A DNA stretch of 58,202 bases from a virus (taxonomy: Duplodnaviria > Caudoviricetes). Under the pieces are notes generated by a model. That model did not search any database. It was not told where the DNA came from and saw only the letters and a list, made by a program, of their open reading frames with translations. Both the position numbers and the translations under genes were made by a program. The stretch is taken from positions 1 to 58,202 of IMG/VR virus record IMGVR_UViG_3300023094_000011; one strand, given 5' to 3'. Shown here in pieces: positions 6,064-8,298 of the stretch; position 1 is the stretch's first letter; every line of letters starts with the position of its first letter.

Positions 6064-8031
6064 ATGAATCCTCTTGCACTCGTTGGCTTTGAAATCAAAG
6101 CCCTCGCCAAACTCGGTGGCCCGCGCGACATCTTCCAGCGTATCGGAACCAACCAGTACGGCGTAACCTATGGCGGCTTCCTCGATGGGCGCGGCCTCGT
6201 TCATCAATCCGCAGCGCCTGACTACGAGCGCTTGGCGGGCGATCCTCTTCATAACGCGGTTGTAGCGGCGTGCGTGGCGGCGATTGCCAAAGCCCTGCCC
6301 GATGCCCCGCTTATTCTCGAACAACGCGAGGGAACGGAATGGAAGATGGTGCCCGACCACGAATGCCTGGAGCCACTACGCGCGCCGAATGAAGATCACA
6401 GCGACGCCGATATCTGGGCGCTCACCAGTGGGTTCAAGGCGACGAAGGGTCAGGCGTTCTGGCTGGTTATTCCTGATGCGGGTGGCCGAGCCAGAGAGAT
6501 ACATGTCTGGAATCCTGACCGCGTGGAAGTGTTGGGCGAGGAAAGCAAGTTCATCTCTGGTTATCGATTGAAGCGTGAGGGCGGCGGCGTAATCACGCCC
6601 GACTACCCGAAAAACCAAATCATCCATTTCCGGCAGATGCCCGACTTTCTGAATCCTCGCGTGGGCTGGAATCCGATAGGCACGGCGCGCGCGCAGATTG
6701 GCGGGGATAATATCGCCGCGACTTACCACACCGGGATTTTGTTTAACGCGGGGGTTATCTCGCTTTTGATTTCGCTCAAAGAAGGCGCGGCGCTGGGGCA
6801 AGTCACGCCGGAACAGTTCAAGACGGTTCTCGAAAATATCCGCAAAGCGACACGAGAACGGGCTGGCGGCGTCGAAGGCTTGAACGTCCCATTGGAAGTC
6901 CAGAAGCTGGCCTATTCGCCCGCAGAGATGAACGTGGATAGCCTTATCGAAGGTTACGAGCGCCGCATTTGCTCGATGATGGGCGTCAGTCAGCGGATTG
7001 CCGGTTTAGGCGCTGATCCAACCTACAACAACCTCGCGGAAGCCCTTAACGACTTCTGGGAGCGGCGCATCGTACCCGACCGCAACAGCGATGCCGCCAC
7101 CCTCAACCGTCAGTGGTTGCCGTTATGGGAGATGGACCCCAATGAGTGGCGTTTTCGGTTTGATTACTCCAACGTCCCGGCGCTGCAAGAGAATAAAGAC
7201 GAGATGCACAAGCGCGTCCGCGAAGATTTCAAAACGGGCTTGCTCGACGGGAAACAGGCCCGCTCCCTTGTGGGTTACTCCTTTGCTAGTGAAGCCGAAG
7301 AAAAGGTGTTCGAAGGCGTGTTCTATGCGCCGCCTAAGAACGCTGCGAAATTATCTGGGGGTGACGCCCCAGAAGTAAAAACCTTCGACCCGAATCAGCC
7401 ACGCGAGGAAGATGGCAAGTGGACTTCTGGTGGTGACGGAAGCTTCGATAAAGCCCATCGGTGGACGGGAGGCGCTTTGCCCGAAACTGAAAGTAAGGTG
7501 TTTCAGGATGGAAAGGCAAAAGCATTGGAAGACTTACTTCCTTACACAAAGCCCGGCTCATTGGAGGCTGCAACCATCGTTTTGAAGCGGGACGGCTCCC
7601 GCTTTGGCGGCATCGCTACAGGAAAGCACGAAGATGTTGATGTTTCGGCGCCGATGAATGTGCCTGTGGCTTTGCTCCACACCCACGATTACGACGGTCC
7701 GCACAGTGAGGGTGATTGGGCTAGCCTAATTGTCAACCGAGGTATTGAGCAATCCCACGTCGTCACGGCCAATAAAACATATTCGCTTCACAAGCCACCT
7801 GGCTGGAATGCTGCTGATCACGGTTTGCCGGAACTCCTACCTTCCGATGGACAACCCGAATACGACGCCAAAATGACCGCTGCTGAAAATGCATTTGGGG
7901 AGGTGTGGTCGCATCAATTTATGAGCACACCTGGATTTGGAAATGCAGGATGGGAGCAGAAGATATACCTTCAGGCGGGGCAGGAAATGGCGCGCAAGCT
8001 GGGTATAATTTTACGTACAGGAGAGCGATAA
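6064..8031 (+). CDS. HK97-family portal protein with C-terminal JAB/JAMM-like cargo domain
   Basis: Portal motifs (VAACVAAIA, PN, IIHFR, TYNN, RFRFDYSNVPAL); after ~aa 440 FDPNQPREEDGKWT, then E...HTHxxxxxxSxxD. Confidence 0.9.
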   Translation: MNPLALVGFEIKALAKLGGPRDIFQRIGTNQYGVTYGGFLDGRGLVHQSAAPDYERLAGDPLHNAVVAACVAAIAKALPDAPLILEQREGTEWKMVPDHECLEPLRAPNEDHSDADIWALTSGFKATKGQAFWLVIPDAGGRAREIHVWNPDRVEVLGEESKFISGYRLKREGGGVITPDYPKNQIIHFRQMPDFLNPRVGWNPIGTARAQIGGDNIAATYHTGILFNAGVISLLISLKEGAALGQVTPEQFKTVLENIRKATRERAGGVEGLNVPLEVQKLAYSPAEMNVDSLIEGYERRICSMMGVSQRIAGLGADPTYNNLAEALNDFWERRIVPDRNSDAATLNRQWLPLWEMDPNEWRFRFDYSNVPALQENKDEMHKRVREDFKTGLLDGKQARSLVGYSFASEAEEKVFEGVFYAPPKNAAKLSGGDAPEVKTFDPNQPREEDGKWTSGGDGSFDKAHRWTGGALPETESKVFQDGKAKALEDLLPYTKPGSLEAATIVLKRDGSRFGGIATGKHEDVDVSAPMNVPVALLHTHDYDGPHSEGDWASLIVNRGIEQSHVVTANKTYSLHKPPGWNAADHGLPELLPSDGQPEYDAKMTAAENAFGEVWSHQFMSTPGFGNAGWEQKIYLQAGQEMARKLGIILRTGER

Positions 8032-8034
8032 ACC

Positions 8035-8298
8035 ATGGCTGAAAAAATCGTGAAATACCACGCAGGCAATCGCAAAAATAGCGGTGCGTCAAAGAAAATC
8101 AAGGAACTGCTGAAAGGGCATCATGGCGCGCTAGGGGAAAAGAAATCAATAGATGTGACCGATGAAAAGAAAGCTCTCCCCGACTGGGGCGATGAAGAGT
8201 TTGAAACCGAAGAAATCACGGGCGCGGATTCTAAGGCGGCGGCAAAGCTGGCAACGCCGAAATTGCAAGATTTGCTGGGTGCCAGTAAGAACAAATGA
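8035..8298 (+). CDS. Small charged protein, possible partner or immunity protein of the portal cargo
   Basis: RBS AGGAGA; TATAAT at 8004-8009 just upstream; ATGA overlap with next gene. Confidence 0.65.
   Translation: MAEKIVKYHAGNRKNSGASKKIKELLKGHHGALGEKKSIDVTDEKKALPDWGDEEFETEEITGADSKAAAKLATPKLQDLLGASKNK

Follow-up and report, generated by a model that had tools for sequence, protein, structure and literature searches.

The closest described counterparts of the locus reported here are phage effectors fused to MuF and portal proteins and followed by downstream immunity genes (Jamet et al. 2017, PMC5576092; Iyer et al. 2017, PMC5512222). According to the accessible text of the former, a metallopeptidase domain is present on 20% of MuF toxins (PMC5576092). 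The accessible part of a 2012 paper (PMC3482391) describes JAB domains of polymorphic toxins that are paired with immunity proteins, and places Tox-JAB-2 in caudoviruses. A preprint (bioRxiv 10.64898/2026.01.27.700999) concerns, in its accessible part, the moonlighting of unfused portals and has no bearing on a portal-JAB fusion. Here we describe a portal protein with a C-terminal JAB/MPN-like domain and the 87-amino acid (aa) open reading frame (ORF) behind it, referred to as ORF87, in a virus of the class Caudoviricetes (IMG/VR record IMGVR_UViG_3300023094_000011). The pair is located in the head module of the analysed stretch of 58,202 nucleotides (nt), the window, which represents an entire virus record of 58.2 kb that carries direct terminal repeats (Table 1). 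In the reading we favour, and hold with moderate confidence, the portal JAB domain and ORF87 form an enzyme-plus-inhibitor cassette of the toxin-immunity or toxin-antitoxin (TA) kind that is borne on the phage head.

Measured against the MuF toxins as the accessible text of these papers presents them, the locus shares a head protein, at or next to the portal, with a variable C-terminal enzymatic domain; a cargo domain that also occurs elsewhere, here free-standing and, in a portal protein of 988 aa, after a 2H domain; and a small gene directly downstream, in the slot of an immunity gene, in a phage that looks temperate. It differs in its carrier, a PF04860 portal that matches no MuF model (Pfam, PHROG), and in its cargo, a JAB domain that matches no library and belongs to a cassette also found free-standing, in a TA-like pattern, in chromosomes. 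With the JAB domains of polymorphic toxins, as covered in the accessible part of PMC3482391, it has in common a divergent JAB domain with the E, HxH, S, and D residues and a small partner. Unlike them, it has no hidden Markov model (HMM) match to PF15659 or PF14220, its carrier is a portal in place of RHS or secretion domains, and its partner is small and appears largely disordered, whereas theirs are lipoproteins or have an NTF2 fold. Word searches of open-access text returned neither a JAB-based TA system nor a portal-fused JAB domain with a partner gene. What appears to be new here is the portal as carrier, the uncatalogued JAB cargo, the chromosomal TA-like counterpart with its partner tail, and a predicted plug in the active site.

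The N-terminal part of the fusion is a portal by its matches to Pfam Phage_portal (PF04860, aa 66-403, E 4.4e-35) and to phrog_2662 "portal protein" (1.6e-44), and beyond residue ~405 no Pfam or PHROG model matches. The remainder very probably includes a JAB/MPN-fold metal hydrolase, similar to zinc hydrolases, an assignment that rests on the conservation and placement of the motif more than on structural Z scores. An earlier sequence-only reading of this DNA had noticed the motif E...HxH-x6-S-x2-D in the portal extension and called the domain JAB/JAMM-like (JAB1/MPN/Mov34 metalloenzyme); the motif is there letter for letter, and fold, motif placement, and family conservation back the call. 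When the domain was aligned with 21 database relatives (domain numbering, to which 459 is added for portal numbering), H80, H82, and D92 were invariant and E42 was conserved in at least 90%. Across the family, for which 37 sequences were collected for the motif count, HxH-x6-X-x2-D is kept in 36, and some members have G, A, T, or N in place of the Ser of the motif. The AlphaFold2 model of the domain (22-row alignment) has a predicted local distance difference test (pLDDT) of 94.5 and a predicted template modelling (pTM) score of 0.90. In this model, strand 76-81 has HxH at its end and helix 90-98 has S..D at its start, the arrangement known from JAMM enzymes. The single departure from the motif is a free-standing copy (L017, 6001-6546) with YTH instead of HTH, which has lost the first metal ligand and is possibly inactive.

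The model was compared with PDB representatives using an all-against-representatives aligner, for which a Z score below 8 may mean a common arrangement only. The best match is Cap3 (9ild_A; Z 6.8, root-mean-square deviation (rmsd) 3.5 Å, 119 aligned residues), followed by JAMM1 of P. furiosus (5ld9_A; Z 6.2, 3.4 Å, 105 aligned), AfJAMM (1r5x_A; Z 5.6, 3.1 Å, 89 aligned), and, in fourth place, a bacterial deubiquitinase acting on ubiquitin-like proteins (Ubls) (8tyy_B; Z 5.5, 3.9 Å, 112 aligned). Rpn11, CSN5, Sst2, and BRCC36 rank after these four, and RadC is found at Z 5.0 (2qlc_A; 3.6 Å, 99 aligned). JAMM/MPN proteins or complexes that contain them make up 14 of the 20 top rows, with the chains in the proteasome and CSN rows assigned by inference. 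Profile alignment with hhalign to 24 Prok-JAB ORFs of the same phylum gave E 4.9e-4 at a probability of 32%, in a register that puts HTH on HSH and S..D on S..D. Sequence searches of the PDB with the domain and with its profile returned chance-level rows only. The best BFVD matches are "minor capsid proteins" of uncultured phages (8 of the 13 top rows, E 1e-7 to 6e-5), and a protein feature search gave a weak lead to a Phage_min_cap2 cluster (0.89), so that related cargo is probably common on MuF-type carriers. A protein-atlas feature search added weak leads to Toxin-JAB1 and DUF4329 (0.84).

Judged by sequence searches, the JAB family to which the domain belongs is rare and uncatalogued. An exhaustive phmmer search with residues 460-655 over 1.84 billion representatives returned 21 matches at E ≤ 0.001, the long members being portal fusions of 676 and 683 aa and a protein of 988 aa, and the rest measuring 91-252 aa. 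Neither the domain nor the portal had a relative in scans of IMG/VR, and tblastn against 50,697 phage records gave two chance-level rows only. Profile searches of a 5.8-billion collection recovered the query or two known members only, a result that says little because the word index limits those searches. The window portal is 31-44% identical over its full length to three other portal-JAB fusions (L003, L004, L022), which lie in prophage or phage contexts with homologous protease-scaffold and capsid genes; L003 is from Abditibacteriota bacterium IAD-21 and L004 is a metagenome contig. The 988-aa protein (P0009), also from a metagenome, consists of a portal, a 2H phosphoesterase, and a JAB-like domain and is a small polyvalent head protein. 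Its 2H part matches 2_5_RNA_ligase2 (E 7e-5) and, weakly and below the cut-off, the anti-CBASS protein Acb1 (E 0.011; CBASS, cyclic oligonucleotide-based antiphage signalling system).

Free-standing copies of the domain occur at 12 loci in Abditibacteriota-type chromosomes, and no head genes were detectable near these loci by tblastn. At one of them (L002, the chromosome of an Abditibacterium metagenome-assembled genome), a 202-aa JAB gene lies between a peptidase S9 gene and genes for a HEAT-repeat protein and alanyl-tRNA synthetase. The others are L015-L021 and L023-L026, with L015-L026 coming from genomes G005, G035, G126, and G180. A profile search of 201 genomes of the phylum found the JAB family in seven, one of which has seven copies. 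Nine of the 11 further loci have an upstream neighbour on the same strand at a gap of -49 to +58 nt, and the nine neighbours are unrelated: a rhamnosidase, an AAA ATPase, a CoA-ligase subunit, a cytochrome-c/PSD protein, a prolyl oligopeptidase, GalT, ThiC, an Fe-S assembly protein, and a PP2C. The ORF upstream of L025 has no Pfam match and is more distant from the JAB gene. The free-standing modules of JAB gene and small ORF sit tightly at the 3' ends of unrelated housekeeping genes. DNA similarity between paralogous copies is restricted to coding sequence, which marks them as old copies and rules out recent transposition.

The free-standing copies resemble type II TA systems in that they consist of two small genes in the same direction, which often share an ATGA overlap, among unrelated neighbours, and in that they are patchily distributed, with several copies in one genome. 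They differ from type II TA systems in that the larger gene, the putative toxin, comes first and no DNA-binding domain was seen in the partner. We know of no JAB-based TA family. From these settings, the JAB and small-ORF cassette appears to behave as an autonomous unit, and the domain as a modular cargo of head proteins in phages.

In all related loci compared, the JAB domain is accompanied by a small ORF downstream. An ORF of 55-115 aa on the same strand, starting within -40 to +30 nt of the JAB stop codon, follows 15 of 15 related JAB genes, compared with 13 of 114 control genes (other genes of at least 150 aa at the same loci; Fisher p 2.5e-12), and its start often forms an ATGA overlap with the JAB gene. 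Among the 12 free-standing partners, seven have [RQ]KAA as their C-terminus (L016, L018, L019, L021, L024, L025, L026) and an eighth has RKVA. A KAA end is found in nine of the 754 small ORFs of those loci, seven of these nine being the JAB partners. The K-A-A codons vary synonymously among the copies, which argues for selection on the protein tail of the partner. Tails of the [RQ]KAA type resemble protease-recognition tails of the ssrA type. ORF87 itself belongs to no family in Pfam, PHROG, NCBIfam, and PADLOC scans. Homology of ORF87 to the other partners was considered on the strength of an N-terminal likeness seen by eye, but HMM and BLASTP comparisons gave it no statistical support.

Complex prediction places ORF87 on the active site of the JAB domain. 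For the one pair modelled, the JAB domain (17-row alignment) with ORF87, the interaction prediction score from aligned errors (ipSAE) is 0.88, compared with 0.01 for the best of three controls; this mark is reached by 58 of 80 solved complexes and by 2 of 110 mismatched pairs, counts that hold only roughly here because a custom alignment was used. The runs agree in at least 59% of contacts, with a partner pLDDT of at least 49. In the confidently predicted interface, residues 3-26 of ORF87 contact JAB residues 42, 44, 46, 64-73, 78, 80, 89-92, 94-95, 99, and 102 and helix 145-160. In the model, the N-terminus of ORF87 (residues 3-14) forms a strand against JAB residues 64-73, the strand that precedes the HxH strand, and covers E42, H80, and S89-D92. 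The prediction supports binding of ORF87 at the JAB active site. A ubiquitin-like fold for ORF87 was considered and dropped, because the partner has a pLDDT of about 50 and is positioned in the model over its first 26 residues only. A model of the full-length portal (4-row alignment) reached a pLDDT of 38.6 and is uninformative on how the domain is seated on the portal.

Put together as a mechanism, the last 196 residues of the portal would be a JAB enzyme joined through a conserved linker to the body of the portal, and the N-terminal ~25 residues of ORF87 would lie as an added strand and helix across its cleft (E501, H539, S548-D551). Produced together with the portal, ORF87 would silence the enzyme in the producing cell, in the manner of an immunity protein or an antitoxin, and the unrestrained enzyme may be toxic; its substrate could be a peptide or isopeptide bond or a nucleic acid. 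The chromosomal cassette, with its TA-like pattern, would have been grafted onto the portal C-terminus in this phage lineage. Portals are dodecameric and their C-terminus faces the capsid interior. Up to 12 copies of the enzyme would be built into the head, since the domain is fused to this interior-facing C-terminus, and these packaged copies could act early in the next infection, possibly after release of the domain by cleavage at the linker motif that the portal shares with the protease-scaffold protein.

At the linker, three residues, K439, R447, and G451, are invariant across the four portal-JAB fusions. The expression [QH]PRx(2-4)Gx[WF] retrieves only two ORFs of at least 150 aa from the window, the portal and the protease-scaffold protein. 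The motif may be a maturation cleavage or targeting signal, an idea suggested by its recurrence at the protease/scaffold junction and in related head polyproteins. Together with the Gly-rich stretch that follows it, it marks domain junctions in head proteins only (window, L003, L004, L022), and it is present twice in a polyprotein of more than 1212 aa in L004 and also in a 417-aa ORF of L022. In the L004 head polyprotein (5901-9536), the middle part is homologous to the prohead protease (tblastn 1e-34), and every linker motif is followed by repeated helical modules.

A more far-reaching version of the cassette reading, which we regard as unlikely in its entirety, would see in these genes a new TA-like family, in which a small, mostly disordered partner would keep a JAMM hydrolase inactive by inserting its N-terminus into the substrate cleft, and in which the [RQ]KAA tail of the chromosomal partners may be a protease degron. 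Phages of Abditibacteriota would have fused this module to their portal, and the prohead protease would free a dozen copies at NQPRxxxGxW, which, once injected, would disarm Ubl or CBASS defences or reprogram the cell before phage genes are expressed.

Several observations count against the enzyme-plus-inhibitor cassette, or at least against parts of it. The usual spacing from HxH to Ser in JAMM enzymes is 7, and here it is 6. Every structural Z score for the domain is below 8, and the six remaining rows of the top 20 are relatives of the deaminase fold at Z 5.0-5.3. Foldseek against the PDB returned no match at E ≤ 0.001 (best 9efq_E, 0.072). Pfam (E ≤ 5), PHROG, NCBIfam, and PADLOC (E ≤ 1) scans gave no model for the window domain, and Prok-JAB matches just 4 of 22 family members, at a best E of 0.044 (Pfam). 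On the side of the partner, the complex is a model in which the fold of ORF87 is uncertain, at a pLDDT of about 50. Four loci (L016, L021, L022, L025) have two candidate partner ORFs, and the one nearest to or overlapping the stop codon was picked by eye. The KAA end is found in 0 of 4 phage-borne partners, ORF87 scores E 5.8 against the HMM of the free-standing partners and E 25 against the L004 partner by BLASTP, and leave-one-out HMMs recover one of the 12 free-standing partners at E < 0.01.

The sequence-only reading had offered two interpretations, a toxin-immunity pair and a virion-delivered deconjugase that counters ubiquitin-like defence. The first gained support from the small ORFs behind all related JAB genes and from the predicted position of ORF87 across the catalytic site, and it is the better supported of the two. 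The second, in which the domain would be a Cap3/Bil-type isopeptidase that strips the Ubl conjugates of type II CBASS or Bil systems, with ORF87 as a regulator or an unrelated gene, seems quite unlikely. Cap3 and Bil-type deubiquitinases (9ild, 8tyx/8tyy) are indeed the best structural matches, 9ild_A ranking first and 8tyy_B fourth, and the domain has their full JAMM set, with all four catalytic positions conserved, at a similar size. The 988-aa relative, moreover, carries the domain after a 2H phosphoesterase weakly like Acb1. Yet these Z scores reach only 5.5-6.8, and the gap to the archaeal JAMMs is less than 1, so that the two groups are tied. No sequence model matches (PADLOC at E ≤ 1, NCBIfam), and the conjugation-type operon partners of Cap3 and Bil are missing: no E1/E2 enzyme, Ubl, or CD-NTase (cGAS/DncV-like nucleotidyltransferase) was seen among the scanned neighbours of the free-standing copies, the Pfam scan covering the 10 immediate upstream genes and nine ORFs of L002; the phage neighbours are head genes. 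The HxH-to-Ser spacing of 6 is a further difference from Cap3 and Bil, and so is the dedicated small partner predicted on the active site. To our knowledge, a dedicated partner that covers the active site is not a feature of Cap3.

An enzyme-substrate pair would also fit the constant pairing with a small ORF. In this alternative, the small ORF would be a pro-peptide: its N-terminal segment would lie in the cleft in the way a ubiquitin tail does, and cleavage by the JAB enzyme would mature or activate it. JAMM enzymes hold the substrate tail at the very position of the cleft where residues 3-14 of the partner lie in the model, and the [RQ]KAA end of 7 of the 12 partners suggests a functional tail. 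The predicted complex does not separate inhibitor from substrate, or substrate from pseudo-substrate. The partners diverge too strongly for a conserved cleavage site to be recognised, and the neighbours examined include neither a ligase gene nor an export gene. We consider this alternative improbable, to the same degree as the deconjugase.

Chemistry like that of RadC, in which a JAB-fold enzyme would act on nucleic acids or nucleotides and still be a head cargo with an inhibitor, appears doubtful and ranks below both. RadC (2qlc_A) comes within about 2 Z of the classic JAMMs, the weak feature-search leads to Toxin-JAB1 and DUF4329 point in the same direction, and PMC5512222 and PMC3482391, in their accessible text, argue that the divergent JAB clades found among polymorphic toxins and polyvalent proteins may be nucleases. 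The classic JAMM peptidases nevertheless outscore RadC, no Pfam RadC, Toxin-JAB1, or DUF4329 match is present at E ≤ 5 in 22 family members, and the nuclease activity of RadC-like JABs remains a proposal in the accessible text of these two papers. That the domain is a head-maturation peptidase, which would process capsid proteins or cut at the shared NQPRxxxGxW linker during assembly, is highly improbable because the cassette exists without head genes: the linker is indeed confined, within the window, to the portal and the protease/scaffold junction, and it recurs in related head polyproteins, but domain and partner are present in 12 loci beside housekeeping genes with no detectable head genes, and an S78-like prohead protease is already there (Pfam Peptidase_S78, weak, E 0.013), with homologues in L003, L004, and L022.

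The sequence-only reading had proposed separate transcription of ORF87 from a TATAAT hexamer near the end of the portal gene. The hexamer, the AGGAGA sequence, the ATG, and the 87-aa ORF are all present (Table 1), but the idea of a separate promoter is not supported. The window contains eight TATAAT hexamers, compared with a mean of 10.7 (standard deviation 3.3) in shuffles, at least eight being found in 85 of 100 shuffles, which is chance level. The site is absent from the calls of a two-hexamer promoter scan over 5800-11000, and at the -35 position upstream of it, two of six bases match TTGACA (read by eye). Co-transcription of ORF87 with the portal is the simpler reading, as ORF87 starts 3 nt past the portal stop codon, with its own ribosome-binding site. 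We also observed a dip in GC content at 7750-8350, covering the second half of the JAB domain and ORF87 (0.48-0.51, compared with 0.55-0.63 in the flanks), which is weakly compatible with a cassette of separate origin.

Table 1. Coordinates of the portal-JAB/ORF87 cassette and of neighbouring head-module features in the window.
Feature	Position	Strand	Remarks
Large terminase-like ORF	4312-5907		Head module
49-aa ORF with long hydrophobic core	5911-6060		Between large terminase-like gene and portal
Portal ORF, 655 aa	6064-8031	+	Pfam and PHROG match
Portal domain proper, aa 1-439	6064-7380	+	PF04860, phrog_2662
Linker FDxNQPRxxxGxWTxGG, aa 441-457	7384-7434	+	Between portal and JAB domain
JAB/MPN-like metal-hydrolase domain (probable), 196 aa, aa 460-655	7441-8028	+	AlphaFold2 model, PDB matches, conserved residues
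Putative catalytic residue E501	7564-7566
Putative catalytic residue H539	7678-7680
Putative catalytic residue H541	7684-7686
Putative catalytic residue S548	7705-7707
Putative catalytic residue D551	7714-7716
TATAAT hexamer	8004-8009	+	Present; no promoter evidence
Shine-Dalgarno-like AGGAGA	8019-8024	+	10 nt upstream of ORF87 start codon
ORF87, 87-aa small partner	8035-8298	+	ATG at 8035; residues 3-26 (8041-8112) are the predicted interface
258-aa ORF	8295-9071		After ORF87
Protease-scaffold protein	9408-10757	+	Peptidase_S78 at aa 31-169, weak
Second linker copy, NQPRDDNGQWT..	9999-10034	+	Protease/scaffold junction, aa 198; outside cassette
Major capsid-like ORF	10783-12018

The 258-aa ORF that follows ORF87 occupies the usual position of MuF-type genes and has no MuF model match. 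Its only match is phrog_24776 (function unknown), it has a Cys-rich C-terminal stretch, and a homologue is found in the same slot of L004 (tblastn 3e-19).

Loading enzymes onto head proteins so that they enter the cell with the DNA is a known phage strategy, to which the locus described here adds the portal itself as carrier and, as cargo, a JAB family that no library recognises. The partner and its predicted plug provide a testable handle on the divergent JAB domains of mobile elements, for which it has been a question since they were first catalogued whether they are peptidases or nucleases. Should the enzyme be a deconjugase, phage particles would carry a countermeasure against ubiquitin-like bacterial immunity into the cell. 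The free-standing copies, for their part, point to a possible new TA-type module in a phylum that has been little studied.

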